Shown here: piece by piece, positions 22,111 through 64,000 of the stretch | Layout: each line of letters starts with the position of its first letter | Numbering within the stretch: the first letter of the stretch is position 1 | Assembly: GCA_965223075.1 (NCBI GenBank) | Contig: OZ244986.1 | Location: 1,795,591-1,859,590 of the forward strand | DNA length: 64,000 nt | Direction: 5' to 3' | Source of the DNA: Candidatus Marinacidobacterium sp. | GTDB lineage: Bacteria; Acidobacteriota; Vicinamibacteria; Marinacidobacterales; Marinacidobacteraceae | The notes under the pieces: model-generated | The model's input: the letters and a program-made list of their open reading frames with translations, nothing else | What the model was told of the DNA's origin: nothing | Database searches by the model: none | Made by a program: the position numbers and the translations under genes

Positions 22111-22395
22111 GCCGCGCTTCTCGAACGCTCACCCTGTCGCGATCCGCAACGGAAGCTGCCGGGGGGCGCTGGGCGGCGTTTCCGCGTGAACCCGGAGCGC
22201 TGCAAGCCTGACGGCGCGCTCATGAGGGGCCCCACCGGGAGAACTAGCCCGGACCTGCAGCCAGTCCTGCCGAAGGGAGCCGGCATCGTCCGCCGCCGGC
22301 GTCGAGCCGTGACATGCGGGAATCTCCAAAGCGACTTTTCCACATCTTCGCCCCAACGCGGGAAGAACCGGGCCGGGATTCCGTCGGAGTAGTTA

Positions 22396-22576
22396 ACAGC
22401 CTGTGGTGAAACTCACGCGGCGTTCAAGCGGCGATGCATCCCGGCTGAACCGCGCCGCTTTGCGGCGCTCTGCGTTGCGTTTCGGTCGAAATACACTCGG
22501 TATTCCTCCCTCACGCGCCTTGTCAGCCGGGCGCCTCACCGCTCTCGGCGCTCACGCGAGTTCCACCACAGGCTGT
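22396..22576 (-). mobile_element. MITE copy 1 (~181 bp), TIR AACAGCCTGTGG, flanked by TA
   Basis: Terminal inverted repeats ACAGCCTGTGG...CCACAGGCTGT with TA on both sides. ~85% identical (reverse orientation) to the copy at 58797-58997. Confidence 0.8.
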
Positions 22577-23823: not shown

Positions 23824-25122
23824 TCATCCCTCCAGGTAGCGGGTGGCGGCCAGCAGGCGCGCCGTGATGGCGTCGAAGATTGCAACCTCCATTGCCTGCG
23901 GGAAATCGTCAGGTAGGCCTTCACGCACGGTCTCGAAGGCCCCGGCGCGAATCTCGATCAGTTCCGAAAAGAGGCTTCGAAGGACTCGCGCGGGGACACC
24001 GGCGGCTCTTGCGGTCTCGACGAAATGCCGCGGTTCGATGCACTCCACCACCCGCAACCCGGCGCCTCCCACCGCGAGCGACATCATCGCTTCGTCGGCC
24101 GGAAGCCCCCCGCCGGTGAGCGCCGGCTGCACCGAGACGATGTCGTAGAGCGGCGCGAGGCGGAACCTGCTCCCGGGGAGCAGCCGCAGGCTGTAGTTCT
24201 TGGCATGGCCGTCAATCGCGGCGAGGAGCCAGAAGACGATCTGCGCCCGGAGGAAACTGCGCCGGTCTGCCTCGGACACGACCGAGCCTTCGAACAACTC
24301 GAGGAGCCGGATCATCCCCGGTCCCCCGTCCATCTCGTACTTGCGACCCGACGGGATCCCGAGCGCCTGCGCGAGATCCTCGTGGGGCACCCGCAAGAGC
24401 CGGCCGCCGCCGGCCCACCGCCGGTCGAAACGTTCGACCACCAGGACCCGAACCTCGCCGAAGTCTGCGATCCGAGCAGGCGCCACATCCAGCCCGAACG
24501 CCGACGCCAGGCTCAGGCAGAGGAACTCGTTCTCGACGCTCCGGCTGAAGTCCACCCCCATCAGCGAGCCGATCTGAGGCTTCAGGATGTGGGTCGTCGG
24601 CGTGAATCCGCGCGGGAGTTGCCAAACCCCACCCGAGAGCAGCAGGGCCGTCTTGCGCTGGGCGCCCGCGAGCGAGATACGAAACCGTGGGCCGACCCCG
24701 AGGGGACGCCGGTCCAGTTCCGAAACGAGCCGCGCCACCTCGTCGTCCGCAATCGGCGTCCCCAGAACGGCACCGGGCGGGCCGGGATCCTCCCCTTCCG
24801 GGACGAAGGTCAGCGCGCCCGCCGAACAGCGGCCGAGGTACGCGAGCAGGTTGTAGGGGTGAGTGTCCGGAGCATCCACGCGCGCAGCCAGCCGGGCGCG
24901 CACTCCCTCGGAGTCGGGCAGCAGATTGTCGAGAAACCGGAATACCGGCACCCCGCGGTGACCGGCCGGATCAAGCGGCAACGAGAGCGAGACCGGCGTG
25001 GCGCCCTTCCAGGCGAGCCACTCCGCGTCATATGCAAGCGTGAGCCCGGACGGCGTCCGGGTCAGGGTTCCGAGACGCCTCCCGTTCTCGAAGAGGCGGA
25101 GGGTCCGGCCGACAGACCTCAT
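23824..25122 (-). CDS. hipA: HipA serine/threonine kinase toxin
   Basis: HipA N- and C-terminal domains are present, including HAKNYS, PQIGS and GAQRK motifs. The preferred start is ATG 25122 (MRSVGRTLRLFENGRRLG). Confidence 0.8.
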   Translation of the reverse strand: MRSVGRTLRLFENGRRLGTLTRTPSGLTLAYDAEWLAWKGATPVSLSLPLDPAGHRGVPVFRFLDNLLPDSEGVRARLAARVDAPDTHPYNLLAYLGRCSAGALTFVPEGEDPGPPGAVLGTPIADDEVARLVSELDRRPLGVGPRFRISLAGAQRKTALLLSGGVWQLPRGFTPTTHILKPQIGSLMGVDFSRSVENEFLCLSLASAFGLDVAPARIADFGEVRVLVVERFDRRWAGGGRLLRVPHEDLAQALGIPSGRKYEMDGGPGMIRLLELFEGSVVSEADRRSFLRAQIVFWLLAAIDGHAKNYSLRLLPGSRFRLAPLYDIVSVQPALTGGGLPADEAMMSLAVGGAGLRVVECIEPRHFVETARAAGVPARVLRSLFSELIEIRAGAFETVREGLPDDFPQAMEVAIFDAITARLLAATRYLEG

Positions 25123-25138
25123 TCCGCAAGTCCCGGGT

Positions 25139-25387
25139 TCATTCGAGATCGTCCCGTTCAGCGAGCACCCACTGGCGGTCCCGGAGCACGACCTCCCGGC
25201 CGAGGACCGCAAGCAACCGGAAGACGGTATCCATCCGGGTTCCGGGCGCGCCGTTTTCGGCGGCGGAGACCGTGGCCTGCCGCAGCACGCACGCCTCCGC
25301 CAACTCCGCCTGGGTCATGCCCCGCCGCCGTCGGAGAGACCGAATCGCCTGACCGAGGGCGCGCGGGCTCGTTGCGATGGGATCCAT
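25139..25387 (-). CDS. hipB: HipB XRE-family HTH antitoxin
   Basis: 82 aa with HTH_3 motif LGQAIRSLRRRRGMTQAELAEACVLRQATVSAAENG, immediately upstream of hipA. Confidence 0.75.
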   Translation of the reverse strand: MDPIATSPRALGQAIRSLRRRRGMTQAELAEACVLRQATVSAAENGAPGTRMDTVFRLLAVLGREVVLRDRQWVLAERDDLE

Positions 25388-25439
25388 GGGGCTATTCCGA
25401 TATACGCCGTATCGTATACTGCACGAATATACGCCAAAC

Positions 25440-25750
25440 CGCAAATCACCCATCCGACCGACGGTCCGGGCCGACAGGGACCGCCGACCTCCGGTCGGCA
25501 TCGCCCGCCGCGGGCGGGCGAAACCGGCAGTAACCCTCCAATAGATGGCGGCGAGCGAAACGGCGCTCACGTAGGCAACCAGGTCGCCATCCCGCAGAAT
25601 CCCCGTGCTTCGCTTCCGCGGACCGCCGGCTGTGACACTTCCGGTCAGTTGCCCGGGCCGGCGGCGCGCCGCCAGCACGGGTTTCGCCCTACCGGGCGAT
25701 GCCGGTCTGGAGACCGGCGGTCCCTGGCCCTTCCGCCGCCCGTCGCTAGC
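25440..25750. repeat. REP-like mosaic palindromic region
   Basis: Contains GACCGCCGACCTCCGGTCGGCATCGCCCGCCGCGGGCGGGCGAAACCGGCAG and GATGCCGGTCTGGAGACCGGCGG modules. Confidence 0.6.
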
Positions 25751-27819: not shown

Positions 27820-28812
27820 ATGCTCGATATGAAGGTGATGGAACGAAATCGACGGACACCGGTTTCCGAGTTGGAGTTCGTCGGCTGCGAGCCGATCCGG
27901 GTGAGCGCGGCCGAGATCGAGGGTCCCGAGTGGGAGGGACGCCGCGTCGAGTACTGGCACGCGCTGACGGAGACGGCTTGGCTGGTGCGGGAACCGACGA
28001 GCCCGTACCACGAAGTTCCGTCGCGTCGCCTTCCGGCCCTGGTGGAGCGGATCTGCCAGGCCCGCGGGTCGGCGGCCCGGTGCTTCGGTTCGTCCGATCT
28101 GCGGATTCGGGAAGAGGACGGATCGCTCGGCGATCTGATGCAGGCGGACGAAGCGGTGTACCTGCGCCCCGGCAAGGCGAAGATGCCGCGGGGCGCCGCA
28201 CTGATCGTGGGAGAGGATGACCCGCCGGACGTCGTGCTGGAGGTGGACAACACGACGGACGTTCGGCGCGGCAAGCTGATCGCGTATGCGGAGTGGGGGT
28301 TCCCCGAGATCTGGGTGGAGACGCCGGACGAGGGTTCGCCGAGCCGGCCGCGGGCCCTCCGGCCGCGGCTGGCGCTCCATGTGCTGGAGGACGGACGGTA
28401 CCGGGAGTCCATGGAGAGCCGGGCGTTTCCGGGGTGGCGCGCGGAGGAGATCCACCGCGCCCTGAACGAATCGGAGCTGTCGCTGGCGACGGATGCCGCG
28501 CTCTGGCGGGTGGGGCGGGCGCTCGGGGAGCGGGAGGGAACGGTCCCGGAGGACGATCATCTGCTGCGGCGGATGGAACGGCGGGGACATGCCCGAGGAC
28601 TCGCAGAGGGCCAAACCCGGGCGGCGCTGGAGGAACGGGCAGGGATGGCAGCGGCGATTCTGCGTCACCGCGGCGTCGCGGTTTCCCCCGACTTCCCGGC
28701 CGGTCTCTCCCGAGACGACCGCGCCATCCTTGCGGCGGCCTCCCCTGATGACGTCGTCGAGGCGGCCTCCGGCGCCGCCACCCTGGCCGACTTCCTCGCC
28801 CGTCTCCAGTAG
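27820..28812 (+). CDS. Uma2-family (DUF820) PD-(D/E)XK endonuclease fused to a C-terminal DUF4351-like domain
   Basis: Uma2 core PDVVLEVDNTTDVRRGKLIAYAEWGFPEIWV. The C-terminal RRMERRGHARGLAEGQ...AILRHRG...LADFLARLQ resembles DUF4351 of Rpn/YhgA-like proteins. Confidence 0.65.
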   Translation: MLDMKVMERNRRTPVSELEFVGCEPIRVSAAEIEGPEWEGRRVEYWHALTETAWLVREPTSPYHEVPSRRLPALVERICQARGSAARCFGSSDLRIREEDGSLGDLMQADEAVYLRPGKAKMPRGAALIVGEDDPPDVVLEVDNTTDVRRGKLIAYAEWGFPEIWVETPDEGSPSRPRALRPRLALHVLEDGRYRESMESRAFPGWRAEEIHRALNESELSLATDAALWRVGRALGEREGTVPEDDHLLRRMERRGHARGLAEGQTRAALEERAGMAAAILRHRGVAVSPDFPAGLSRDDRAILAAASPDDVVEAASGAATLADFLARLQ

Positions 28813-28854
28813 CCCAGCGCAAAAAGGGCGGCGGCATCCTCGCCGCCCTCCCGA

Positions 28855-31800
28855 ATGCACGAAAGAAGCGGTCAGCTCTTTTTCGCCCCCACGGACCTCA
28901 GCCGGTTCCTTTCGTGCCGGCACCTGACGAGCCTTTCCCGGAGCGTTGCCCTGGGTGAGCAGTCCCGGCCGCCCGAGTACGAAGATCCCCGGTTGGAGGC
29001 GCTGATCGAGGCCGGAAGAAAGCACGAGGCGGTGATCCTGGAGCGGTATCGGGCCGAAAGCCGCACCGTAGAGATCGTGGATCGCGACACGCCAGAGCGC
29101 CGGGCGCGCACCCTCGATGCGATGCGGCGCGGCGTGGACGTCATCTACCAAGGGTTACTCGCCCACGGGCCATGGAGTGGCTACCCCGACTTTCTGGTTC
29201 GGGTGCCGCGACGGAGCACACTCGGCGGGTGGTCCTACGAGGTGGTGGACGCCAAGCTCGCCACGGTGCCGAAGGCCGATGCAGTGCTCCAGATCGCCGT
29301 TTATTCGCGGCTTCTGGAGAAAGCACAGGGCGGAGTTCCGGTGCATATGCACCTCGAACTCGGCCGCCACCAGGGACGGGAGAGCTTCCGGGTGACGGAC
29401 TTCGCCGCGTTCGAGCGCGCCCTCGTCCGGCAGCTCGACGAGCACTGCGCCGCGCCATCGGACACCTACCCGGAGCCGGTCGAGTTCTGCGAGCGCTGCG
29501 ACTGGAACGCCGCCTGCAAGGACCGGCGGCGGGCGGACGATCACCTGTCGCTGGTCGCGAATACCACCCGTCATCAACGCCGCCGGCTTGAGACACAGGG
29601 GATCACGACCCTCACGGGTCTGGCGCGGATCACGCTTCCACTGGACCCACCGCTGGCGCGGGTGGCGCCGGCCGCGCTCCAGCGCATCCACCGGCAGGCG
29701 AACGTGCAGCGCACGGGGCGCCAGTTGAACCGGACTTTCTACGAGCTGGTGGTGCCTCCCGAGGACGGACGGGGACTACTGCGGCTCCCTCAGCCCTCCG
29801 CAGGAGATCTGTTCTTCGACATCGAGAGTTCTCGACCGGGGGCGGACGAGGCTCTCGAATACCTGTTCGGGTTGGTCGATCGCGACGGCCAGTACGAAGA
29901 CCGTTGGGCCTTCGACCGGGCCCGCGAACGCCGGGTTTTCGAAGATTTCCTGGATCTGGTGGCTGAACGCCGTGAACGCTTCCCCGACCTCCACATCTAT
30001 CACTACGGGAGCTACGAGACCGGGGCCCTGAAGCGCCTGATGTGCCGCTACGCCACCCGCGAGGACGCGATGGACGGGCTGCTCCGCCGCCAGGTCTTCG
30101 TGGACCTCCTGCAGGTCGTGCGGCAGGGGGTGGTGGCGTCGGTGGAGAGTTACTCGATCAAGGAAATGGAGCCGTTCTTCGGTTTCGAGCGGGAACAGGA
30201 ACTCCTCGAAGCAAACCGGGCGCGCGCCCGGATGGACGCCTTGCTCGATTCCGGGGACGCCGCTGCGGGCACGCTTCCAGGGGATCGGGAGCTGATCCGC
30301 CGCTACAACCGCGAGGACTGCCTATCCGCGCTGGAACTCCACGGATGGCTCGAAGGGCGGCGGCTCGAACTGACGAACCGCGTCGGCTTACGGGAGCGGC
30401 CGGTCGTGGAAATCTCCCCGGAGGACGAACAGGCGCAAACGGAGGCCGCGGCGCGGGTATCGGAACTCGTCGCCCGGCTCGCGCAAGGTCCCGAGGAGGA
30501 GGCGGACGCGCGGCGGCTCCTGGGCCATCTGCTCGACTACTACCGGCGGGAGGACAAGTCGACATGGTGGGAGTACTTCCGCGTGAAGGATCTCGACGCG
30601 CAGGAACTGGTCGAAGACCCGGCACCGCTAGGCGGACTGGAGTTTGACCAGGACATGGGGCCGGAGAAGCGGTCCGTGCTGCATCGTTACCGGTTTCCTC
30701 TCCAGGAACACCGGATCAAGGCCGGCAAGAAGGTCGAGGATTTCGACACCGGCAGGTCGCCCGGTGATGTGTTCGAAATCGCGGACACCACGGTGACCCT
30801 CAAGCGCAGCAGCACGGCCCGGCGGCAACCTCATCCGCGGGCGTTGGTGCCGGACGAGCACGTGCGCCCGGCCCCCAAACCGGGTTCCCTGTTCCACCTC
30901 GGCGAACTGGTCGCGGACCATGGATTCGCCGATGACAGTCCCCGCCGGGCGGCCTTCGATCTCCTTCGCCGGATCCCGCCGCGCGACGGCATAGCCGGAG
31001 AACCGCTGGTCCATCCGGGCGAAAACATCCTCGCCGCCGCCCGCCGTCTTGCGCTCGGCCTCGACCGCGGCGTGCTGGCGGTCCAGGGACCGCCAGGCAG
31101 CGGCAAGACCTACGTTGGCGCCCGCATCGTCACCGCGCTGCTGGCGGCCGGACGGCGGGTGGGAGTCACGGCGCAGAGCCACCGCGTCATCACGAACCTG
31201 CTGGACAGCGTGTGCTCGGCGGCGACGGAGGAGGGAGTCGTCTTCCGGGGCATCCAGGGGGTGCGGGAGACGGGTTGCGACGATCCGCGGATCGCGGTCC
31301 TGCCCGGTCCCTCGAGGCTGACCGCCGAGGCCGCAGCGGCCCCCGACGTCCGGCTCATCGGCGGCACCGCCTGGGTCTGGTCCCGGGAGGACATGGCGGA
31401 CTCCGTGGACGTGCTGGTCGTGGACGAAGCCGGGCAGTTCGCCCTCGCGGACGCGCTCGCCTCCGCGCCGGCCGCGAACAGCCTCGTCCTGCTCGGCGAC
31501 CCCGCCCAGCTCGACCAGGTAACCCAGGGCGTCCACCCGGAGGGATCCGTTGCCTCCGCGCTCGGCCACCTCCTCGGCGAGCACCAGACGATGCCGGCCG
31601 ACCGCGGCCTCTTCCTGGCAGCGACCTGGCGGATGCACCCGGACATCTGCCGGTTCACCTCGGAGCAGTTCTACGAGGGCCGGCTGGAAGCGCGGCCGGG
31701 CCTGGAGCGGCAGGGAATCCGCGGAGGGCCAATCCCTGGTGCGGGACTCCGCTTTGTCCCCGTCACGCACGCAGGCAACCAGACGGAATCGCGAGAGGAG

Positions 31801-32229
31801 GCCGGACGGGTCGCCGTCCTCGTTGATGGCCTACTGGAAGGCGCGTCGTGGACCGATTCCTCAGGAGCCACGCGACGGGTTACACCTGACGACATCCTCG
31901 TAGTAGTCCCATACAACGATCATCTCGCCCTGCTGGACCGCCAACTCGGGGACCGCGTGCACGGGGTGGGAACCGTGGACAAGTTCCAGGGCCAGGAGGC
32001 CCCTATCGTGTTCTTCTCGATGGCGACCTCGACCCCGGAGGCGGCCCCGCGGGGGATGGACTTCCTCTATTCGGCGCACCGCCTCAACGTGGCGACGTCG
32101 CGAGCCCGCTGCCTCGCGGTCGTGGTGGCAAGTCCGGAATTGTTCTTTCCGGAGTGCAAGACCCCGCACCAGATGCGGCTCGCCAACGCCTTCTGCCGGT
32201 TTCGTGAGTTGGCGGAAACGGTCCCATAG
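28855..32229 (+). CDS. Large nuclease-helicase: Cas4-like PD-(D/E)XK Fe-S nuclease + RNaseH-like (TM0106-type) exonuclease-like domain + Upf1/Dna2-like SF1 helicase
   Basis: N-terminus: YPDFLV...YEVVDAKL nuclease motifs plus a CxxCx5C cluster (CERCDWNAAC). Middle: DLFFDIES and YHYGSYE (DnaQ/RNaseH-like). C-terminus: Walker A GPPGSGKTY, Walker B VVDEAGQ, DKFQGQE and NVATSRAR. Confidence 0.75.
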   Translation: MHERSGQLFFAPTDLSRFLSCRHLTSLSRSVALGEQSRPPEYEDPRLEALIEAGRKHEAVILERYRAESRTVEIVDRDTPERRARTLDAMRRGVDVIYQGLLAHGPWSGYPDFLVRVPRRSTLGGWSYEVVDAKLATVPKADAVLQIAVYSRLLEKAQGGVPVHMHLELGRHQGRESFRVTDFAAFERALVRQLDEHCAAPSDTYPEPVEFCERCDWNAACKDRRRADDHLSLVANTTRHQRRRLETQGITTLTGLARITLPLDPPLARVAPAALQRIHRQANVQRTGRQLNRTFYELVVPPEDGRGLLRLPQPSAGDLFFDIESSRPGADEALEYLFGLVDRDGQYEDRWAFDRARERRVFEDFLDLVAERRERFPDLHIYHYGSYETGALKRLMCRYATREDAMDGLLRRQVFVDLLQVVRQGVVASVESYSIKEMEPFFGFEREQELLEANRARARMDALLDSGDAAAGTLPGDRELIRRYNREDCLSALELHGWLEGRRLELTNRVGLRERPVVEISPEDEQAQTEAAARVSELVARLAQGPEEEADARRLLGHLLDYYRREDKSTWWEYFRVKDLDAQELVEDPAPLGGLEFDQDMGPEKRSVLHRYRFPLQEHRIKAGKKVEDFDTGRSPGDVFEIADTTVTLKRSSTARRQPHPRALVPDEHVRPAPKPGSLFHLGELVADHGFADDSPRRAAFDLLRRIPPRDGIAGEPLVHPGENILAAARRLALGLDRGVLAVQGPPGSGKTYVGARIVTALLAAGRRVGVTAQSHRVITNLLDSVCSAATEEGVVFRGIQGVRETGCDDPRIAVLPGPSRLTAEAAAAPDVRLIGGTAWVWSREDMADSVDVLVVDEAGQFALADALASAPAANSLVLLGDPAQLDQVTQGVHPEGSVASALGHLLGEHQTMPADRGLFLAATWRMHPDICRFTSEQFYEGRLEARPGLERQGIRGGPIPGAGLRFVPVTHAGNQTESREEAGRVAVLVDGLLEGASWTDSSGATRRVTPDDILVVVPYNDHLALLDRQLGDRVHGVGTVDKFQGQEAPIVFFSMATSTPEAAPRGMDFLYSAHRLNVATSRARCLAVVVASPELFFPECKTPHQMRLANAFCRFRELAETVP

Positions 32230-32412
32230 CGACGCGCATCCTGCTTCCTCGGGCGGGCGATGCGGGCTGGGAGGCAACGGTCCCCGGTTGGCGTGCGTTC
32301 TCGGAGGCGGGTCTCCCGGACTCCCGCTCTCCTTTTGTCTGGCGAACCGTAACTTTTCAATCTGCCGATGGGTATATTTTCATTTAGCCGAACTGATGTT
32401 TACAATCTGCCG

Positions 32413-33675
32413 ATGGTCCGGAACACCATCTACCCCCGCTTCGTCGAGCCGCGCCTCGCCGAAGCGCTCGCAGATTCTCCTGCCGTTCTGATCCACGGTC
32501 CCCGCCAATCCGGGAAGACCACCCTCGCCCGCCGGTTCGGACAAGGTCGCGGTTACGCGTACATCAACCTGGATGACGACACCCTGCGGGACGCCGCCGA
32601 GGCGGATCCGGTTGGCTTCGCCGCCGATTTGCCCGAGCGCGTCATTCTGGACGAAGTGCAGCGGACTCCATCGCTGTTCCGGGCCCTGAAGACCGAGATT
32701 GACCGGAGGCGGACGCCGGGCCGCTTCCTGATGGCGGGCTCGACCCAGGTGCTGCTCCTACCGCGGTTGTCCGACTCGCTGGCGGGCCGCCTGCAGATCG
32801 TGCGGCTCCATCCGCTGTCGCAGGCGGAACTCACGGGTCGGATTCCCGACTTCCTCGACACGGTCTTCGGCGACGGCTTTCCGATGGCCCACAGCGAGCG
32901 ACTTGGACCGCAACTGGCCGGGCGGATCGTCGCCGGGGGATATCCGGCCGCGCTCGCCCTGCCGACGGAGCGACGCCGAGCCCGCTGGCTCCGCGACTAC
33001 ACAGCGGCGCTCGTGGAGCGTGACGTACGGGACGTAGCCCGGATCGGAGCGCTGGAAGCCCTGCCCCGACTGCTCGGCGTCGCAGCCGCCCAAACCGCCG
33101 GGCTCTTCAACGTGAACGATTTGGCCTCGCCCTTCCAACTCACACGCCCCACGATCCGCAGCTACCTGACGCTCCTTGAACGGATATTCCTGCTGGCGCG
33201 CCTGCCCGCCTGGCAGAGCAATCGCGTGAGCCGCCTGGTCAAGACACCGAAGCTCCACTTCGGCGACACCGGCCTGGCGTGCGCCCTGCTGGGCGCGAAC
33301 GCCGAGGAACTGGCCCGGAACCGAACGCTGCTGGGCCAACTACTGGAGACGTTCGTGTTCCAGGAACTGAGCCGGCAGGCGGACTGGAATGACGACCCGA
33401 TGACTTTTTTCCATTTCCGCGACCGCGACGGAGTCGAGGTGGATCTGGTGATCGAGCGGGCCGGTGGGGCCGTCGCCGGAGTGGAGGTCAAGGCATCCTC
33501 CACGGTAAGGGGTCGCGACTTCCGGGGACTCCGCAAACTGGCGAATGCCACCGGGGACCGATTCGCGTCCGGGGTAGTGCTCTTCGACGGGGAAACCAGT
33601 GCGCGGTTCGGCGAACGTCTGTTTGCAGTGCCGATTCGAAGGTTGTGGGAGGCACCTGGAGGCGGAGGCGGGTAG
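32413..33675 (+). CDS. AAA_14 ATPase with DUF4143 domain (paralog 1)
   Basis: Walker A HGPRQSGKTT and DUF4143 C-terminal domain. The lister's start at 32368 is also possible. Confidence 0.7.
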   Translation: MVRNTIYPRFVEPRLAEALADSPAVLIHGPRQSGKTTLARRFGQGRGYAYINLDDDTLRDAAEADPVGFAADLPERVILDEVQRTPSLFRALKTEIDRRRTPGRFLMAGSTQVLLLPRLSDSLAGRLQIVRLHPLSQAELTGRIPDFLDTVFGDGFPMAHSERLGPQLAGRIVAGGYPAALALPTERRRARWLRDYTAALVERDVRDVARIGALEALPRLLGVAAAQTAGLFNVNDLASPFQLTRPTIRSYLTLLERIFLLARLPAWQSNRVSRLVKTPKLHFGDTGLACALLGANAEELARNRTLLGQLLETFVFQELSRQADWNDDPMTFFHFRDRDGVEVDLVIERAGGAVAGVEVKASSTVRGRDFRGLRKLANATGDRFASGVVLFDGETSARFGERLFAVPIRRLWEAPGGGGG

Positions 33676-33844: not shown

Positions 33845-35425
33845 CTACTCGGCCGCCATGGGGCGGTCGCGGTCGTGGTCCACGACGCAGAAGAAGCCGA
33901 ACGGCTCGGCGGTCTCGTTCCGCAACTGGTGGGCCTCCAGCGGGCCGACGCAGGCGACGTCGAGATGCCGCAGCGGCAGCCGGCGATCTCCGAGGAGGAG
34001 GACGCCTTCCCCGCGCGCTCCGATGACCACGTGGGTGTGGACATGCCGCTCGAAGCTGGTGTGGCCGCCCGGCTCGACCTCGAAGTAGCGAAGATCCGAG
34101 CGCGTGCGCTCCCCGAATTTCCCGACGAGTTCCACCCGCCGCACGCCCCGGAACGCGAGATCTCGAGCGTCCTTGTAGGGCGAGCTGTCGCGCCCCTCCC
34201 AGTTCCAGTCGCGGCTGAAGGTCAACCGGCGAGGCTCCGGAAGCGCGGGGCGCGGCAGATCCGCCGGTTCCATGGCGACCTCGGGGTGGGATTCGCGGAT
34301 CCTCGCGAGGATCTCCCGGGTTCCCGCCTCCACGCCGCCGGCGTGGCCGAGCAGCGCCCCGCCAATCAGCAGCACCGTGTCCGGGCCGTAGGTCTCGCAG
34401 ATGCGTTCTACATCGGCCGGTCCCATTCCGCCGGCGGGGGCCGGCCACGCCGGACGCAGCGTGCCGAGCGGCTCCCGGAGCCGGCCGGTGATCTCCGAGC
34501 ACTCGGCCGCCGAATACGCAAAGCGGCCGCCCGCGTTCGGAAACACCGAAATGTCCGCTCCGGCCAAGCGGAACAGTGTCCCGAGCAGGACTCCGTGGGC
34601 CACTCCCTGCGCCTCCGCGTGGGTGTAGGCCCCGGTCAGCGAGGGGTGCGCCATGAAGATCAGCGGGTAGCGCTCCGCCAGCGCCCGCACCGTGTCGAGG
34701 CCGGTGATCATCGGGCAGATGAGCACTCCGGGAAGGCCGGCCTCGGCCACGAACTCGACGAAACGTTCGAGATCCTCCGCCCGGGCACCGGCGTGGGGAA
34801 GGTAGAGGCACCTTCGTCCGGTCGCCTGGTTGGCCCGCTCCACCGCCTCGCCGCAGACGGCGACGCGGCGGCGAAACCCTTCGAAGTCGTCGGTCAGGTT
34901 CTGGTCGTCCTTGACCAGATCTCCACCAGCCCGCGCAAACGCGCCCGCTATCGCGGCCAACTCGGGGACGCTCGAGCCCCGGGGCTTTACCGCCGTGGCC
35001 AGCAGCGGACGCCCGAGCACACCGCAAAGCCGCCGCACCCCTTCGACGCCGTGGTTCGGTCCCGGGAGGCTCTCGAGCAACGCCTGGGGTGGCTGCAGAT
35101 CGACGAGTCGCACGCCGCCGTACATCGAGGCGTTGCCGATCGCCACGCTCAGCAGGCCGAAGAGATCCGTCGCGAGGTCCGCCGCGTAGCTGATGGTGAT
35201 TCGGGAGGCGCCCGGAGCGTCCGGGTCGGGCGCTACCGACTCGACCTTCCCGACGATTTCGTCCTGAATCCGTCCGGGTGGAATCAGCGACTGCGGAATC
35301 TCTACCGTCTGCTCGATGGCGATGGCGCGGGCGAACTCCTCCGGGTCCCCGGAGTTCGCCTGCAGCCGGTAGACGGCGGTTACCCGATCGGGATCGGGCG
35401 GCGCCTCCCGCACGTTCGGTTTCAC
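33845..35425 (-). CDS. RuBisCO-like protein (form IV RLP) fused to a C-terminal cupin domain
   Basis: RLP large-subunit fold with GGDLVKDDQNL (the RuBisCO KDDE motif region). The C-terminal ~110 aa form a cupin (RYFEVEPGGHTSFERHVHTHVVIGARGEG). The start overlaps the tsaD stop by 4 nt. Confidence 0.7.
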   Translation of the reverse strand: MKPNVREAPPDPDRVTAVYRLQANSGDPEEFARAIAIEQTVEIPQSLIPPGRIQDEIVGKVESVAPDPDAPGASRITISYAADLATDLFGLLSVAIGNASMYGGVRLVDLQPPQALLESLPGPNHGVEGVRRLCGVLGRPLLATAVKPRGSSVPELAAIAGAFARAGGDLVKDDQNLTDDFEGFRRRVAVCGEAVERANQATGRRCLYLPHAGARAEDLERFVEFVAEAGLPGVLICPMITGLDTVRALAERYPLIFMAHPSLTGAYTHAEAQGVAHGVLLGTLFRLAGADISVFPNAGGRFAYSAAECSEITGRLREPLGTLRPAWPAPAGGMGPADVERICETYGPDTVLLIGGALLGHAGGVEAGTREILARIRESHPEVAMEPADLPRPALPEPRRLTFSRDWNWEGRDSSPYKDARDLAFRGVRRVELVGKFGERTRSDLRYFEVEPGGHTSFERHVHTHVVIGARGEGVLLLGDRRLPLRHLDVACVGPLEAHQLRNETAEPFGFFCVVDHDRDRPMAAE

Positions 35426-36486
35426 CGGTGGCGCCGGGACCTTCGCGGGCCCTGCTCCCCAAGCCGCAACTCGGTGTCTGCCGTGAGGTCCGCGCCTGCC
35501 GTCTCGCCCCGCAGGAGCGCCAGATGACCGGCGGCGGCGATCATGGCCGCGTTGTCGGTGGAAAGGGCGATGCTCGGGTAGAAAACGGGCAGGCCGCGCT
35601 CCTCACCGAGAGCGTGGAAGCGGGCACGGAGCGCCGAGTTGGCGGCTACCCCGCCGGACAGCAGGACCGCCCTCACTTCGAACATGTCAAGCGCGCGGTC
35701 CACCGAGCGGCGGAGCGCCCGCACCACCGCGGACTGGAAGCTGGCCGCAAGATCGCAGAGATCTTTTCGGCCGGCAGGATCCTCCCCGTCGGCCAAAGGC
35801 GCGATTCCTTCCTGCTCGATGAGCCGAAGGACCTGGGTCTTGAGGCCCGAAAAGCTGAAATCGAGTTTGGCGCCGTCCGAAAAGTGAGGGAGCGACAGCA
35901 GGTGGCGGTTCGCCTTGCCGCGCTGCGCCAACCGGTCGAGCACCGGACCGCCCGGATAGCCGAGCCCGAGCCGTTTCGCGAGCTTGTCGTACGCCTCGCC
36001 GGCCGCATCGTCGCGGGTCTTGCCGAGCAGCCGGTAGGAACTCTCGCCTTCGAGCAGGAAGAGACTCGTGTGTCCCCCGGAAACCACCAGCGCCAGCGCC
36101 GGGTGGGGAACCTCGCCGCCTTCCAGATAGCAGGCCCGGATGTGCCCCTCGATGTGGTCCACGCCCACCAGCGGAATGCCGCGGGCGAACGCGAAGGCCT
36201 TGGCGAAAGAGACCCCGGCAAGCAGCGCTCCAATGAGTCCCGGGCCACTCGTTACCGCAACCGCCTCGATGTCCGCGAGCCCCACGCGGGCCTCGCTCAG
36301 CGCTTGCCGCACCACCGGTGAAAGGTGCAGGAGATGCTGCCGGGACGCGATCTCGGGCACCACCCCACCGAAGGCCGCGTGCTCGGCGACCTGCGACGAA
36401 ACGACATTCGAGAGGATGCGCCGGCCGTCCTCGACAACCGCCGCCGAGGTTTCGTCGCAGGAGGTCTCGATCCCCAGGATGAGCAT
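35422..36486 (-). CDS. tsaD: tRNA N6-adenosine threonylcarbamoyltransferase
   Basis: MLILGIETSCDETSAAVV, VDHIEGH and GGVAAN motifs. The ORF lister fused it to an upstream junk extension; ATG 36486 is the real start. Confidence 0.85.
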   Translation of the reverse strand: MLILGIETSCDETSAAVVEDGRRILSNVVSSQVAEHAAFGGVVPEIASRQHLLHLSPVVRQALSEARVGLADIEAVAVTSGPGLIGALLAGVSFAKAFAFARGIPLVGVDHIEGHIRACYLEGGEVPHPALALVVSGGHTSLFLLEGESSYRLLGKTRDDAAGEAYDKLAKRLGLGYPGGPVLDRLAQRGKANRHLLSLPHFSDGAKLDFSFSGLKTQVLRLIEQEGIAPLADGEDPAGRKDLCDLAASFQSAVVRALRRSVDRALDMFEVRAVLLSGGVAANSALRARFHALGEERGLPVFYPSIALSTDNAAMIAAAGHLALLRGETAGADLTADTELRLGEQGPRRSRRHR

Positions 36487-36491
36487 GGGGT

Positions 36492-37244
36492 TCAGGGAGC
36501 GGCGCCAAACAGACGCTCCATGCCGCGCCTCCAGAAGGGTCCGTTGCGGACCAGGTCGGTCACGTCGGCGGTGAGCATCTCGGAGCAGGCCCGTTCGTGA
36601 CAGGTCTTCCAGTCCGGTCCATCGGGCCGCCCTAGTCGCCCCACGGCGAGAAGGTCGATACGCTCCTCCGCCGAGAGAGCGCCGAGCCGGGCAGTGAGGC
36701 GGCTGCGCGCCAGCGATTCGACCGTCTCCCCGGTGGCGGAGAGGAGATCGTAGGCCTGCGCGAGCGCCACCACGGTCGACCGGGCGATCACCGGCGCCAC
36801 GGCCGCCGCGCCGATCTCGTCCGCGAAGTCGTCGGCGCCGAGATAGCGCACCGGGATTCCGAGCGCACTCGCCTCGACCTTGTTTGCGAGCCTCCGGTCG
36901 GCGGTAACGAGCGGCGATCCGGTCTTCTCCGCACAAGTGAGATAGAGAGCGTCGTACACCGGGTGGTCGAGCGCCAGGGCTATCCCGGCGGCGCGATGAA
37001 CGAAGCGACCGGGCGGATGCAGAGTTATCTCGTACGGGAGGCGTCCGAGGAGGTTCAAGTGCTCCATTACGTCGGGAAGCTGTCCGCGGCGGAATTTCTT
37101 CCAGCAGACATTCGCGAACTCCGCGAGCAGCAGGTCGGGAGCATGCAGTTCCAGCCGGTGGGCGCGCAACAGCTTGGCCGTCCCGGCCAGTTCCTCGGTT
37201 ACGGACCACTTGACGACGACGCTGGCGTCGACCGTCAGCCTCAC
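36492..37244 (-). CDS. PIN-domain (VapC-like) protein with ~110-aa C-terminal extension
   Basis: The four PIN acidic residues sit in VDASVV, LLAEF, YDALYL and VTADRRL. It overlaps the upstream RHH antitoxin (ATGA) and ends 5 nt before tsaD. Confidence 0.6.
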   Translation of the reverse strand: MRLTVDASVVVKWSVTEELAGTAKLLRAHRLELHAPDLLLAEFANVCWKKFRRGQLPDVMEHLNLLGRLPYEITLHPPGRFVHRAAGIALALDHPVYDALYLTCAEKTGSPLVTADRRLANKVEASALGIPVRYLGADDFADEIGAAAVAPVIARSTVVALAQAYDLLSATGETVESLARSRLTARLGALSAEERIDLLAVGRLGRPDGPDWKTCHERACSEMLTADVTDLVRNGPFWRRGMERLFGAAP

Positions 37245-37477
37245 CGGTCCCGATCTTCGCGCAACAGCAGGACGCTGTCCGTCTGGGGAATGTCGGCGGT
37301 CATCCGGGAGAGCGCGTCGGTGCGCTCGCGAAACTGCACCATGCGCTGTATCCGGTCGAACCGCTCCGTCAGTGCGCGCCGGGCCTCGGCCTCCATCGAA
37401 CGGTCGTTCGCCTTGGCCTCCGCCTTCAGCGCCTGGATCACCCGATCATCAAGGTTGCGAATTGTGAGACTACCCAT
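37241..37477 (-). CDS. FitA/VapB-like ribbon-helix-helix antitoxin
   Basis: MGSLTIRNLDDRVIQALKAEAKANDRSMEAEARRAL is a typical FitA-like RHH. Confidence 0.65.
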   Translation of the reverse strand: MGSLTIRNLDDRVIQALKAEAKANDRSMEAEARRALTERFDRIQRMVQFRERTDALSRMTADIPQTDSVLLLREDRDR

Positions 37478-38599: not shown

Positions 38600-39260
38600 C
38601 GAGCACCCTAGCAGCCGGTAGTGAAACCCAGGCGGCCCAGTTGCTGTGAAAATGCCGTCGCGCTGGGACGCCGACAACCCGGATGGCGCGCAGGCAAGGG
38701 AACGCCGACCTCCGGTCGGCACAGCGGCCCGCAGGGCCGCGGGCGGTTCATTGCCGTCCGCCTTCACGGGGCGCAGGCATGGGGCCCGCAGCGCTGCGAA
38801 GGTGTCTGCCATTCCAATGTACGGATCACGCCGAACGCTGGGATTCCCGCCGAGAAGGAACCACCTCGGAACTGGGGGTCCTTCCCGCCGCCCGCCTTCG
38901 GCGGGCTGTGCCGACCGGAGGTCTATACCTTTCCGGGCATCACTTTTTCATGGGGCAGACAGCTTGCGAACGAATGGCGCCGGAGGGGGTGCGTTGGGGC
39001 GCGGCCGGTAGCCGGGGGGCGGCGTCAAGAGGAGGAAGGCGGCGCAGGTTCCGAGCTGGCCGAACCTCATCTGGGCTGGTGTCGATTCCCCGAGGGGCAA
39101 GCCCATTTTTCCTGCTTCCGGCCATGAAACTGCTCCCCGCCCATCCGCGGCGGCGAAGGCACCCGGAGGGCCGGAGCGCAGCGGAGGAGGCGCGCCGCGC
39201 CTTGCCTTCGTCGCCGTGGATGGGCACGATGCTCTCCTCCTGCCGGAACCCTCTGTGCCA
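38600..39260. repeat. REP-like region including composite element copy B (38690-38940)
   Basis: ~90% identical to 3700-3990 over ~230 bp. The right arm is degenerated. Confidence 0.65.
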
Positions 39261-39309
39261 ATGTAGGTGAGACCATTTGCCCGTCTCCTATTAGTGAGGG
39301 TGAGAAGGA

Positions 39310-39801
39310 TTGGAGTTGGTGATGAGAACGAACGCGCCAAGGGGTTTGACCGCGTCGTCGGCCACGGAGCGAGCCCGGAGGGCGAGCGCAGAGGCCGACG
39401 ACGCGGTCGCGATCTTGCCGGAACCCCAGGTGGTGGCGACGCCGAAGCGCCGCCGGTTCACCGCCGAATACAAGCGCCGGATCCTGGAGGCGGCCGACGC
39501 GTCGCGCGAACCGGGGCAAATCGGCGCCCTCCTGCGCCGGGAGGGGCTGTATTCCGCCCTTCTCAGCAAATGGCGTGCGCAGCGTGACCGGGGGGTCCTC
39601 AACGCCCTCGCACCCAGAAGGCGGGGACGCAAGCCCGTGCACCGCACTGCGGACCAGGTTCGCATCGCCGAACTGGAACGCGAGAACGAAACCCTCCGCG
39701 GTCAGTTGCAGCAGGCCGAGCTGATCATCGATGTCCAAAAAAAAGTCGCGAGTCTGCTGGGCGTGAAACCCCCGGACGGGAAGCACGAGCCCAACTCATG
39801 A
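39310..39801 (+). CDS. IS3-family transposase OrfA (HTH)
   Basis: HTH/leucine-zipper protein (RRFTAEYKRRILEAAD..., ELERENETLRGQLQQAELI). Its stop overlaps the orfB ATG. Confidence 0.75.
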   Translation: MELVMRTNAPRGLTASSATERARRASAEADDAVAILPEPQVVATPKRRRFTAEYKRRILEAADASREPGQIGALLRREGLYSALLSKWRAQRDRGVLNALAPRRRGRKPVHRTADQVRIAELERENETLRGQLQQAELIIDVQKKVASLLGVKPPDGKHEPNS

Positions 39802-40811
39802 GCGCCGTGGAATCGCTCTCCGGGTCCGTGGGTGTCCGTCGCGCCTGCGAACTCCTCGGCGTGAGCCGCGCCAGTTGGTACCGCGCTCGTCAGAGCCGAT
39901 CCACAGCCCGCGCTCGCCCACGACCGCCGCTCGCGCTCCGCCCTCACGAGCAGGAGAAAGCCCTGGCCGTGCTTCACGCGGAACGCTTTGTGGACCAGGC
40001 GCCGCGCGCCATCTATGCGACCTTGCTCGAAGAAGGGCGTTACCTCGCCTCGGTGCGCACCCTTTACCGGTTGTTGGCCTCGCGGGGCGAGGTGCGGGAG
40101 CGGCGGGCACAGCGCCGACATCCCAACTACTCCCGGCCGGAACTGCTCGCGACCGCCCCCAATCAACTCTGGTCCTGGGACATCACCCGGCTGAAGGGTC
40201 CCGTGAAGTGGACCTATTTCCACCTGTATGTGATCCTGGATGTCTTCAGCCGCTGCGTCGTCGGCTGGATGGTCGCTCACCGGGAGTCGTCACGGTTGGC
40301 CGAGCGGCTCATCCAGCACTCCTGCGAAAGCCACGGCATCCGCCCCGGACAACTGACCCTGCACGCCGACCGCGGCTCCTCGATGAAATCCAAGCCGGTC
40401 GCGCTGCTGCTGGCCGATCTCGGGGTCACCAAGACCCACGCGCGCCCCCACGTCTCCGACGACAACCCCTTCTCGGAGGCCCAGTTCAAGACCTTGAAAT
40501 ACCGACCGGACTTCCCCGACCGGTTCGGATCCATCGAAGACGCCCGTGCTCACTGCGAAGCCTTCTTCCATTGGTACAACCACGAACACCGACACTCCGG
40601 TATCGCCCTGTTCACTCCCGCCGACGTGCACCGCGGCCTCGTAGCGCTGCGTCTCCAGACCCGACAGGCCACCCTCGATGAAGCTTTCAGAGCACATCCC
40701 AACCGATTCAAGGGCAACCCGCCGGTCGCCCACCGGCCCCCCCACACCGTCTGGATCAACCGGCCAGCCTCCGAGTCCAACACGCCACACAACCACCCCG
40801 TTGCCCCCTAA
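39798..40811 (+). CDS. IS3-family transposase OrfB (DDE integrase)
   Basis: rve integrase core: WSWDITRL, HADRGSSMKS and FHWYNHEHRHSGIALFTP. Confidence 0.85.
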   Translation: MSAVESLSGSVGVRRACELLGVSRASWYRARQSRSTARARPRPPLALRPHEQEKALAVLHAERFVDQAPRAIYATLLEEGRYLASVRTLYRLLASRGEVRERRAQRRHPNYSRPELLATAPNQLWSWDITRLKGPVKWTYFHLYVILDVFSRCVVGWMVAHRESSRLAERLIQHSCESHGIRPGQLTLHADRGSSMKSKPVALLLADLGVTKTHARPHVSDDNPFSEAQFKTLKYRPDFPDRFGSIEDARAHCEAFFHWYNHEHRHSGIALFTPADVHRGLVALRLQTRQATLDEAFRAHPNRFKGNPPVAHRPPHTVWINRPASESNTPHNHPVAP

Positions 40812-41127
40812 ATGCAAACCAAAGTGGTCTCACAGTCATTGACACCTTCCGGAAGCAGGAAAACCACGTTTCCTTTTTTTCTGGGCCCTCCGGTGTGAGA
40901 GGCACCGAAGGGCCCTACCTCACCAACCTGTTAGCCGACCCGCCGGGAGCAACCAACCGGAGGCGCGTGTCTTGAACACCTACGCCGGACTGTGCCTCGA
41001 CGGGTCATTGGCCGTGATCGACGCACAGTAGAAGGGCAGCGCCATCGAGCAGCCAGTATAGGCCCACGCGGACATCACGGCGGCTGACTTCCCCACGAGG
41101 GACTCCCCTCGGAAGGACAACAGCGCC

Positions 41128-42375
41128 ATGACACCTCCTTTTCTTTTTTTCGTCGGCATCGATTGGGGCTCGACGACCCACCATGCATGCCTGCTGGACG
41201 CGCACGGTTCGGTTCGCGGCAGCCGGGCCTTTCCCCACGGGGGCGCGGGCCAGGCGGAGCTCGTCCGCTGGCTCCTGGAGGAGACCGGCGCCGCCCCCGG
41301 GCAGATCGCGGTCGCCATCGAGACGCCCCACGGCCCCGTCGTCGAAGGGCTGCTCCTCGCCGGTTTTGCGGTCTTCGCCATCGGTCCCGCCCAGATCCGC
41401 GGCTCCCGCCGCCGCTACGTCTCCTCCGGGGCCAAGGACGACCCCCGCGATGCCTGGATGCTCGGTCGCGCCCTGCGCGCCGACCCCGACCTCTTCCGAC
41501 GGCTCCACCTGGAGGAGTCTCTCGTCCTCCAGCTGCGGGAACGCACCCGCACCGTCAACGAGTTGACTTGCCAGCGCACCCGCCTCTGCCACCAGATCCG
41601 ACAGCAGCTCTGGCGCTATTACCCCCAACTCCTCGCCATCCCCGACCTCCTCAACCAACTCACCCACCCCTGGTTCGTCGAACTCTGGAACAAGGCCAAA
41701 ACCCCCGCACGGGCCCTCAAGCTGCGCCTCTCCACCCTCGCCAAACTCCTCAAAAAGCACGGCATCCGCCGACTGAACGCGAAAAGCCTGCGGGAGATCC
41801 TGCGCGCGTCCGCGCTCTCCGTCGCCCCCGGAACCGCCGAGGCCGCCTGCCGAGCCCTCCAGGGCCTCTTCGCCCAGGCACACACCACCAACCAACTCCT
41901 CGCCCAGGCACGTCAAGACATCCGCGAACTGCTGAAGGCGTTCTCCCAGAACCACGCCGACGACCAACGCCCCGACGACCCCACCATCCTCCTCTCCCTG
42001 CCCGGAGTCGGGGTCTACGTCCTCAGCACTCTCTTCGCCGAAGCCTTCGCCCTGCTCCAACGCCGCGACTACCCCGCACTCCGCGCCCGCTCCGGAGTCG
42101 CCCCCGTCAGCATCCAGTCCGGCAACACCCGCTGGGAGATCCGCCGCCTCGCCGTCCAGCACGAACTCAGAAACGCCCTCTATCACTGGGCCCGCGTCGC
42201 CGCCCAACACGACCCCCTCAGCAAGGCCCGCTACCGCGCCCTCCGCGCCCGCGGCTTCTCCCACGGCCGTGCCCTCCGCACCGTCGGCGACCGGCTCCTC
42301 GCCGTCGCCTGCGCCATGCTCAAAAACGGCACCCTCTACGACCCCAAGCTCTCCCGAGACAAGCTCGCCGCCTGA
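41128..42375 (+). CDS. IS110-family transposase
   Basis: N-terminal DEDD domain (FVGIDWGSTTHHACLLD) and C-terminal Transposase_20 HhH (LLSLPGVGVYVLSTLFAE). The IS ends are not definable by eye. Confidence 0.8.
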   Translation: MTPPFLFFVGIDWGSTTHHACLLDAHGSVRGSRAFPHGGAGQAELVRWLLEETGAAPGQIAVAIETPHGPVVEGLLLAGFAVFAIGPAQIRGSRRRYVSSGAKDDPRDAWMLGRALRADPDLFRRLHLEESLVLQLRERTRTVNELTCQRTRLCHQIRQQLWRYYPQLLAIPDLLNQLTHPWFVELWNKAKTPARALKLRLSTLAKLLKKHGIRRLNAKSLREILRASALSVAPGTAEAACRALQGLFAQAHTTNQLLAQARQDIRELLKAFSQNHADDQRPDDPTILLSLPGVGVYVLSTLFAEAFALLQRRDYPALRARSGVAPVSIQSGNTRWEIRRLAVQHELRNALYHWARVAAQHDPLSKARYRALRARGFSHGRALRTVGDRLLAVACAMLKNGTLYDPKLSRDKLAA

Positions 42376-42804
42376 ACAACTCCTCCAACCAAAAAAGGAG
42401 CTTCAGAGGGAGCCGGTGGAACGTGTGGGAAACGCGCTCCTCTCCGCCGCGGACGGCGAACAACCGCCGACGCGGCGCCGCGTTTCCCAACGCCCGGGGA
42501 GATCGCTCCCCCTCCCACCAGTCTCCGAAACCCCCAACCACCTCGCATCCCGATCTCCCCGGGACGGCACTTTCCAACCGCTACCAGGCACCGGCCCGCA
42601 GCCCCCCTTTACCCCCTTGACAAAAGGTAGAAGGTCCGGCGTTCCCTTGCCTGCGCGTCGCTCCGTCTGGTGGCTTGGGAGCCATGCGCCATGTTCAGTG
42701 TCCGCGTGGCGCCTCCTGCGACTCGGCGAGCGCTCCCGAGTATGAAAAATGCGGGCTAGCAGTCCACCGGGAGGACTGGCCGGCGTTCCCAATGAGTTCG
42801 ATCG

Positions 42805-63859: not shown

Positions 63860-63997
63860 GCAGCCTGTGGTGAAAGTGACGTGAGCACCGAGAACGGCCA
63901 GTTCTCCCGGTGGGGGCGAGGCGCCCGGCTGACAAGGCGCGTGAGGGAGGAATACCGAGTGTATTCCGACCGAAACGCAACGATGAGGGCCGCGTAG
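63860..63997 (+). mobile_element. MITE copy 3 (partial, runs off the window), same orientation as copy 2
   Basis: TA-GCAGCCTGTGGTGAAAGTGACGTGAGCACCGAGAACGG... is ~90% identical to 58797-58935. Confidence 0.75.
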
Positions 63998-64000
63998 CGG

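Follow-up and report, generated by a model that had tools for sequence, protein, structure and literature searches.

Dna2 consists of a nuclease, a beta-barrel mounted on a stalk of two long helices and a helicase with domains 1A and 2A, and its single-stranded DNA (ssDNA) passes through a central tunnel (PMC4716839). Bad of Geobacillus stearothermophilus is an iron–sulfur (Fe-S) helicase-nuclease with ssDNA endonuclease and 5'-3' helicase activity, and according to the study that characterised it there is a 'second class' of DNA2-like proteins, present in Mycobacteria and Rhodococcus (Wilkinson et al. 2020, PMC7430649). Members of COG2251 combine a PF13482 domain, a PD-(D/E)XK domain and tandem AAA domains, the C-terminal AAA tandem being frequent (Majorek et al. 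2014, PMC3985635); the same study predicts PF13482/COG2251 to be a 3'-5' exonuclease family related to that of PolB. Here we describe a gene of this last family in a 64,000-nucleotide stretch of Candidatus Marinacidobacterium sp. (contig OZ244986.1, positions 1,795,591 to 1,859,590, forward strand), which as a whole is called the window. The gene and the modules of its product, the helicase being of superfamily 1B (SF1B), are as follows.

28855 to 32229, plus strand: complete gene of 1124 amino acids, TM0106-family RecB-like nuclease plus SF1B helicase (open reading frame and translation)
28855 to 29544, plus strand: Cas4/RecB-type PD-(D/E)XK nuclease, residues 1-230 (TIGR03491 coverage, conserved motifs)
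29545 to 29808, plus strand: helical linker, residues 231-318, RRRLETQGITTLTGLA (helices in the model)
29809 to 30384, plus strand: RNase H-like (PF13482, YprB/PolB-exo type) predicted 3'-5' exonuclease, residues 319-510
30385 to 31056, plus strand: stalk and beta-barrel accessory module of Dna2/Upf1 type, residues 511-734 (model secondary structure, Foldseek)
31057 to 32229, plus strand: SF1B (Upf1/Dna2-like) helicase core with RecA domains 1A and 2A, residues 735-1124

The plus-strand reading frame is uninterrupted between its ATG (28855) and its stop (32229), its start methionine lines up with the start methionine of homologues in the alignment, and its 1124-residue product is 100% identical to a protein previously deposited in NCBI/ENA (P0001). 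GC by codon position is 0.75/0.47/0.83, as in real genes of this window, whose GC content is about 67%. An earlier note on this DNA had read the product as a fusion of a Cas4-like nuclease, an RNase H-like domain and an SF1 helicase, and every motif that it quoted was found in the translation at the expected position:

residues 110-114: YPDFL
residues 129-134: EVVDAK
residues 212-221: C212-x2-C215-x5-C221, to which C21 is added
residues 320-325: FFDIES
residues 382-388: YHYGSYE
residues 745-753: GPPGSGKTY
residues 855-861: VVDEAGQ
residues 1042-1048: DKFQGQE
residues 1078-1085: NVATSRAR

Profile searches bear out the three-module fusion. The strongest match, to the 'TM0106 family RecB-like putative nuclease' (TIGR03491), reached 253.8 bits, above the cutoff of 97.45 (E 3.3e-75), with residues 13-499 of the protein aligned to model positions 4-462 of 462. 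The TM0106 arrangement proposed for the N-terminus was thus right as to family and too generous as to extent, since the model spans 44% of the protein and not two thirds of it. Within this region the RecB/Cas4 signature is complete (D112, E129-x2-D132-x-K134, Q146-x3-Y150), and C21, C212, C215 and C221 form a predicted four-cysteine 'iron-staple' Fe-S site. Generic nuclease profiles were marginal (PDDEXK_1 at 18.4 bits, under its cutoff; PADLOC Cas4 at E 0.019). A profile of the N-terminal half matched none of the sequences in the PDB, so that solved relatives recognisable by sequence exist for the helicase part only. A separate model of residues 1-515, built from a nine-sequence alignment, was poor (predicted local distance difference test score, pLDDT, 65), and a PDB fold search with it gave nothing significant; RuvC, RNase T and RNase H prevailed in the weak list that it returned, and the weak fold matches of the N-terminal region included the Dna2 nuclease and Cas4 (8d3l_I). 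The predicted fold of residues 1-515 also matched giant-virus proteins in BFVD at E 1e-10 to 2e-5 (A0A3G4ZWN9, A0A5K0U8I2, E3T4R0, A0A5J6VIM9 and A0A3G5AGZ9, from Faunusvirus, Yasminevirus, Cafeteria roenbergensis virus, Megaviridae and Sylvanvirus). The linker that follows is possibly helix-hairpin-helix-like; it has no significant Pfam match in the present protein, and two homologues carry a precomputed PF14520 match there.

Residues 319-499 matched PF13482 (RNase_H_2) almost end to end (profile positions 1-164 of 165) at 72.6 bits, above the cutoff of 22 (E 4.9e-20), and among the fold matches of the exonuclease region were giant-virus proteins labelled 'YprB RNase H-like' (E 1e-10 to 7e-9). 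The DEDDy-type residues D322, E324, E388 (and D417) and Y484-x3-D488 were assigned to motifs Exo I, II and III by pattern, without superposition. The label 'DnaQ/RNaseH-like' given earlier to this domain is supported by the profile match in its second half and is loose in its first, as PF13482 groups with PolB-type proofreading exonucleases and the residue pattern is DEDDy. One full-length homologue (the seventh sequence of alignment A3) keeps its nuclease motifs and has a degenerate exonuclease site, with FAAID for FFDIE, SSVP for SYET and CNRDD for YNRED, which suggests that the 3'-5' exonuclease is occasionally lost in the family.

The C-terminal third is a helicase of the AAA_11/AAA_12 type, as had been proposed (AAA_12, 84.9 bits, E 7e-24; AAA_11, 38.3 bits, E 2e-9; cutoff 27 for each), and together with AAA_30 (E 5e-12) these families cover residues 733-1093. 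Its motifs are a Walker A of GPPGSGKT, a Walker B of DEAGQ, GDPxQL, TVDKFQGQE and NVATSRAR. The helicase would be a 5'-3' translocase, a polarity taken from subfamily membership only. Its sequence matches in the PDB are Upf1, IGHMBP2, senataxin/Sen1 and Dna2.

A full-length AlphaFold2 model, built from a 43-sequence alignment, reached a mean pLDDT of 82.7 and a predicted template modelling score (pTM) of 0.70, and in it an alpha/beta nuclease (1-230) is followed by a helical segment (231-318), an alpha/beta domain, probably RNase H-like (319-510), and, at 735-1124, two RecA-like domains. Between the last two lies a stretch in which no Pfam family matched (residues 511-734); here the model places long helices at 522-543 and 547-577, forming a stalk, and a six-stranded beta-barrel at 596-666, and by this model residues ~511-734 would belong with the helicase and not with the TM0106 module. 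The top Foldseek match of the model in the PDB was mouse Dna2 (5EAN; E 5e-26), over an alignment of 1238 columns that therefore takes in both nuclease and helicase. The next matches were IGHMBP2, Upf1 and senataxin, SF1B enzymes of 5'-3' polarity, and Aquarius and nsp13, those to IGHMBP2 and Upf1 spanning about 650-720 columns. Taken with the published layout of Dna2, this model architecture indicates that the protein is laid out like Dna2, with two additions behind the nuclease, a linker and a predicted DEDDy exonuclease.

The same comparisons bear on whether the substrate could be RNA, that is, on whether this is a machine that joins a Upf1-like RNA helicase to ribonucleases and serves RNA surveillance or the degradation of invader RNA or R-loops. 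The nearest solved helicases by sequence, Upf1, IGHMBP2 and senataxin, lean that way, as does the best similarity found in PADLOC, to the helicase cores of the Mokosh proteins MkoA and MkoC. In PADLOC-DB v2 all matches were to the helicase core only (MkoA 831-1098, E 7e-38; MkoC 910-1112; DpdJ 741-1096), so that the Mokosh similarity is confined to residues 831-1112, and the phospholipase D (PLD) nuclease of that system is missing; the best full-length fold match, moreover, is Dna2. To our knowledge every characterised Fe-S RecB/Cas4 nuclease or PolB-type DEDDy exonuclease acts on DNA, and the presence of two DNA-type nucleases makes an RNA-directed role improbable.

Conservation was assessed in 146 full-length sequences, namely the query and 145 representatives of clusters formed at 50% identity. 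Each of the four Fe-S cysteines is kept in 142-146 of them. In the RecB nuclease D112 is present in 145, D132 in 142 (with Glu in the other four), K134 and Q146 in 145 each and Y150 in all 146, while in the exonuclease D322 is invariant and E324, E388, D417, Y484 and D488 are found in 145, 143, 142, 144 and 144 sequences, respectively. Walker A, Walker B and motifs III, V and VI of the helicase are essentially invariant. Such near-invariance across 146 homologues points to purifying selection on all three catalytic modules, each of which is intact in the present protein.

The fusion is not a rarity. A word-indexed search returned more than 5600 proteins at E<=1e-10, of which the best 120 are almost all full-length (~1100-1260 residues) with an identical Pfam set, and 1.84 billion cluster representatives, searched exhaustively, yielded 2839 matches at E<=1e-30, the best 150 being nearly all single and collinear over residues ~1-1120. 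In a scan of one genome per species, at least 597 species carry full-length homologues, in lineages that include Acidobacteriota, Chloroflexota, Alpha- and Gammaproteobacteria, Bacteroidota, Planctomycetota, Actinomycetota and Thermotogae; the closest among the matches listed is in a metagenome-assembled genome (MAG) of Candidatus Marinacidobacterium, at 81% identity. The gene also lies on 69 plasmids, 26 of them conjugative and some only 51-150 kb in size, and 59 of these plasmid copies are full-length; most of the plasmid copies listed are annotated by PGAP as 'TM0106 family RecB-like putative nuclease'. The earlier note's description of the fusion as unusual therefore has to be given up: with the same full-length architecture in thousands of proteins and in print since 2014, it is a widespread, already-named bacterial family. 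The locus itself is routine, and the remaining interest lies in the function of the whole family.

These numbers also dispose of the most trivial account of so long a reading frame, which would make it a chance product of GC-rich DNA, a mis-assembled fusion or a decayed pseudogene. GC-rich DNA does yield many long spurious open reading frames, and one homologue is split in two; against this stand the codon-position GC bias of a real gene, a profile match down to E 1e-75, hundreds of collinear full-length homologues and catalytic residues that are all intact. The artefact is refuted by the TIGR03491 match, the full-length homologues and the conserved catalytic residues, and its probability is negligible.

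The earlier note had proposed an end-resection or degradation machine and had named as checks the searches with TIGR03491, PF13482 and AAA_11/AAA_12, all of which match above cutoff, and an AlphaFold model, which at full length best matches mouse Dna2. It had also held that a middle region of another fold or a nuclease without catalytic residues would overturn the idea; the middle region is PF13482 and the N-terminal nuclease keeps its catalytic residues. The idea is a reasonable inference that fits the whole-length Dna2 fold match. On present evidence we put at about even the chance of a bacterial enzyme of Dna2 type that works on its own to degrade DNA ends, and that does so more probably against foreign DNA than in core repair. 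Such an enzyme would load on a free ssDNA end or on a junction of single- and double-stranded DNA, and its SF1B motor would move 5'->3' along the loaded strand at the expense of ATP. The strand would be threaded into the Fe-S-stapled RecB/Cas4 nuclease and cut there, as in Dna2 and Bad, and the PolB-type DEDDy exonuclease would trim 3' ends. Together, motor, Fe-S nuclease and DEDDy exonuclease would allow a single chain to degrade or resect both strands of a DNA end, working with both polarities.

As to its role, the neighbourhoods of the gene were compared by all-against-all clustering of up to four genes per side at 79 loci. No neighbour family occurred in more than six of the 79, and an operon or multi-gene system is rejected on that ground. 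The 109 adjacent genes from these loci that were scanned with Pfam and PADLOC include SF2 helicases that strongly match PADLOC SngC, DpdF, HEC-05, BrxHI and PsyrT and, by Pfam, GmrSD, SMC/SbcC-like ATPases (in ~4/79 loci), Uma2 and TrwC relaxases. Cas families are absent from the Pfam and PADLOC families listed for the genes adjacent at the 79 loci; a CRISPR-associated Cas4 role is rejected for this lack of cas context, the PADLOC Cas4 match being only E 0.019. All 10 of the annotated plasmid loci inspected lie among defence, toxin–antitoxin (TA) or mobile-element genes:

plasmid locus: VapBC, integrase, HNH and SNF2 genes
Sphingobium plasmid locus: HEPN, DUF3883 and WYL genes upstream, an SbcD/SbcC-like pair directly downstream
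plasmid locus: an Abi gene upstream, a 3'-5' exonuclease gene and a DUF4011 (Hhe-like) gene downstream
plasmid locus: a three-gene helicase operon
Rhizobium johnstonii plasmid (L086): ImuA-ImuB-DnaE2 and DinB upstream, SIR2 and an ATPase downstream, the gene itself split
plasmid locus: a WYL regulator nearby
plasmid locus: a ubiquitin-like/E2/E1 cluster
two plasmid loci: HEPN and WYL genes upstream, with McrB-like and McrC genes downstream in one
plasmid locus: a DUF2357 gene

Mobile spread, the lack of a partner gene, carriage on plasmids and defence-rich neighbourhoods together speak for a function in the conflict with foreign DNA. The protein would then be an accessory, horizontally mobile enzyme with no obligate partner, resident in defence islands, whose most likely task is to destroy or process linear DNA that is foreign or aberrant.

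Several points weigh against this account. In Dna2 itself the polarity of bound ssDNA precludes a simple cooperation of helicase and nuclease (PMC4716839), and the coupling of motor and nuclease assumed above may for that reason not hold; the strand that the DEDDy domain would serve is one that we purely infer. No PADLOC system matched beyond generic similarity of the helicase core, no homologue was found in phage genomes, and a literature search for 'TM0106' returned no relevant paper and no experimental study of the family. Many chromosomal neighbours are housekeeping genes (peptidases, major facilitator superfamily transporters), the proximity to defence genes is a raw tally of neighbours, uncorrected for background, which leaves the association with them only suggestive, and plasmid accessory regions are defence-rich in any case. 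Some contexts, moreover, suggest functions in DNA damage, namely the ImuA-ImuB-DnaE2 mutasome with DinB beside the Rhizobium copy and the SbcD/SbcC-like genes downstream on the Sphingobium plasmid.

These last contexts, with the SMC/SbcC-like neighbours noted above, are what might be expected if the same enzyme served housekeeping or stress-induced repair, through Dna2/AddAB-like resection or the processing of flaps and forks in the cell's own DNA. The fold resembles Dna2 over its whole length, and the activities needed for two-strand end resection are all present and conserved. Some WYL regulators control DNA-damage regulons. On the other hand, no repair gene is conserved in synteny across the 79 loci; TA, restriction-like and defence-candidate genes prevail among the neighbours; copies are plasmid-borne, including on plasmids of 51-150 kb; and one plasmid copy is split by a frameshift, which suggests that the gene is dispensable. 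A repair role is the main alternative, serious if less probable.

A bolder form of the foreign-DNA reading is that TM0106-plus-helicase proteins are a widespread and unrecognised single-gene defence system, often under WYL-type control. Each would be a one-chain, RecBCD-like destroyer of invading linear DNA or of plasmid replication intermediates, in which the extra 3'-5' exonuclease would let one protein erase both strands. We consider this rather unlikely. Should the family be a stand-alone defence or end-processing enzyme, thousands of genes would gain an annotation.

WYL regulators co-localise with defence systems (PMC9122601). A divergent WYL gene lies just upstream of the nuclease-helicase gene on three alphaproteobacterial plasmids (L083 5892-6875, L089 4460-5434 and L091 4447-5421), accompanied by a HEPN gene in L089 and L091 and by a DUF3883 gene preceded by HEPN in L083; downstream of the nuclease-helicase gene the trio carries SbcD/SbcC-like genes, McrB/McrC-like genes or a large hypothetical gene. 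The Rhizobium copy (L086 6001-9397) consists of two overlapping open reading frames, the nuclease part and a part annotated 'DEAD/DEAH box helicase', and is probably frameshifted. In a gammaproteobacterial MAG a C-terminal fragment (L051 12511-12750; residues 1042-1121, 65% identity to the query) lies 1.1 kb past a full-length gene and is probably what is left of a further copy.

At the present locus the surroundings are likewise accessory in character and are among the grounds for the defence reading, and two genes flank the nuclease-helicase gene on the same strand:

27820 to 28812, plus strand: Uma2-family (restriction-endonuclease-like) gene (Pfam Uma2, E 8.8e-9)
32413 to 33675, plus strand: AAA_14/DUF4143 ATPase, PADLOC defence candidate PDC-S01 (Pfam; PDC-S01, E 4.6e-166)

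The Uma2 gene, unusually long at ~325-330 residues, ends 42 nt upstream of the ATG; this neighbour is shared with the close relatives L001 and L002 only, and with Uma2 in just 2 of the 109 scanned adjacent genes it is no conserved partner. In the 42-nt gap a GC-rich hairpin (28830-28847) scores as a terminator on the minus strand only, and a scan for promoters and terminators around the nuclease-helicase gene gave nothing above chance. The start of the AAA_14/DUF4143 gene was taken from the gene call in L001. Ahead of that gene is a promoter-like site at 32377-32406, and a 14-bp direct repeat, CAATCTGCCGATGG, occurs at 32358-32371 and 32403-32416 with an in-frame ATG in each copy; as the two copies overlap both ends of the promoter-like site, they could be an operator.

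Farther out, one flank of the region carries the TA pair HipA plus a helix-turn-helix (HipB-like) protein (23824-25480) and the other a PIN toxin with a FitA-like ribbon-helix-helix antitoxin (36492-37477). Relative to the 98-99% identical metagenome contig L001, a 4.1-kb insertion (38637-42772) lies between mtnA and ATP synthase genes. It contains an element of the IS3 family (39310-40811) together with a transposase of the IS110 family (41128-42375), and these insertion sequences stand 6-10 kb from the nuclease-helicase gene. On the minus strand (33845-36487) a TsaD/Kae1-like carbamoyltransferase frame (35422-37209 frame) overlaps a frame for a RuBisCO-like protein plus cupin (33845-35425) by 4 nt; L001 has a single 880-residue fusion call here, a 1-nt indel near 35494 separates the two sequences, and the pair could be a true fusion, a frameshift or a sequencing error. 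Repeats of ~80-270 bp, 83-96% identical, occur at 22394-22537, at 63906-64000 and within 21.3-23.6 kb, and also in L001, and may be a dispersed repeat or a miniature element. No tRNA genes, looked for as island markers, were found in the 64-kb window.

Set beside known systems, the protein would be a functional analogue of AddAB, AdnAB and RecBCD, ATP-driven processors of DNA ends that have RecB-type nucleases (Fe-S-stapled in AddB) and act on both strands. Those enzymes, however, have several subunits, use SF1A (3'-5') motors alone or with RecD and lack a DEDD exonuclease, whereas here one chain carries one SF1B motor. With the anti-phage effector Nhi (nuclease-helicase immunity) it has in common the plan of a nuclease plus helicase in a single protein, and with Mokosh a COG1112/Upf1-like helicase core. 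None of the system proteins in PADLOC-DB v2 (Nhi, Mokosh, Hhe, Dpd and others) gave a full-length match. Membership in Nhi is rejected, as no Nhi model in PADLOC-DB v2 matched, and so is membership in Mokosh, for which the match covers the C-terminal half of the helicase only, with neither the PLD nuclease nor an MkoB partner. WRN likewise joins a DEDD-type 3'-5' exonuclease to a helicase in one chain, and its exonuclease belongs to the same clade (PMC3985635); its helicase, however, is an SF2 RecQ enzyme of 3'-5' polarity and it has no PD-(D/E)XK nuclease, so that the likeness is an analogy only.

Closer is Bad, a bacterial single-chain Fe-S nuclease with an SF1B 5'-3' helicase, as is predicted for this protein, sporadic in its distribution and found beside genes of restriction-modification type (PMC7430649). 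The comparison is by description only, and an RNase H-like domain is not among the features that the paper gives for Bad; the 'second class' that it mentions may be the TM0106-plus-helicase family. Rv1251c of M. tuberculosis is a candidate orthologue of the present protein, although two homologue searches returned only MAG names such as 'Mycobacteriales bacterium'. Dna2 (5EAN, 5EAW) presents the same elements in the same order, an N-terminal Fe-S PD-(D/E)XK nuclease, a helical stalk, a beta-barrel and a C-terminal SF1B helicase. It differs in that the present protein has an extra DEDDy exonuclease and helical linker between nuclease and stalk, and in that no counterpart of the N-terminal OB/Rpa-binding part of Dna2 was identified in it; identity is ~14%, the TM-score is ~0.35, and sequence similarity is limited to residues 1009-1093 (E 6e-7). 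The low identity, the inserted DEDDy domain and a TIGR00376 score of 87.9 bits against a cutoff of 348.9 exclude a Dna2 orthologue, and a family of this build, if the reading of it as a Dna2-like end-degrading enzyme is right, would offer a compact bacterial model for nuclease-motor coupling of the Dna2 type. The closest described group is TIGR03491/COG2251 itself (cluster F.13 of the RNase H-like superfamily; Majorek et al. 2014), of which the TM0106 name describes the N-terminal 44% of the present protein only, and of which that protein is a member with the same architecture.

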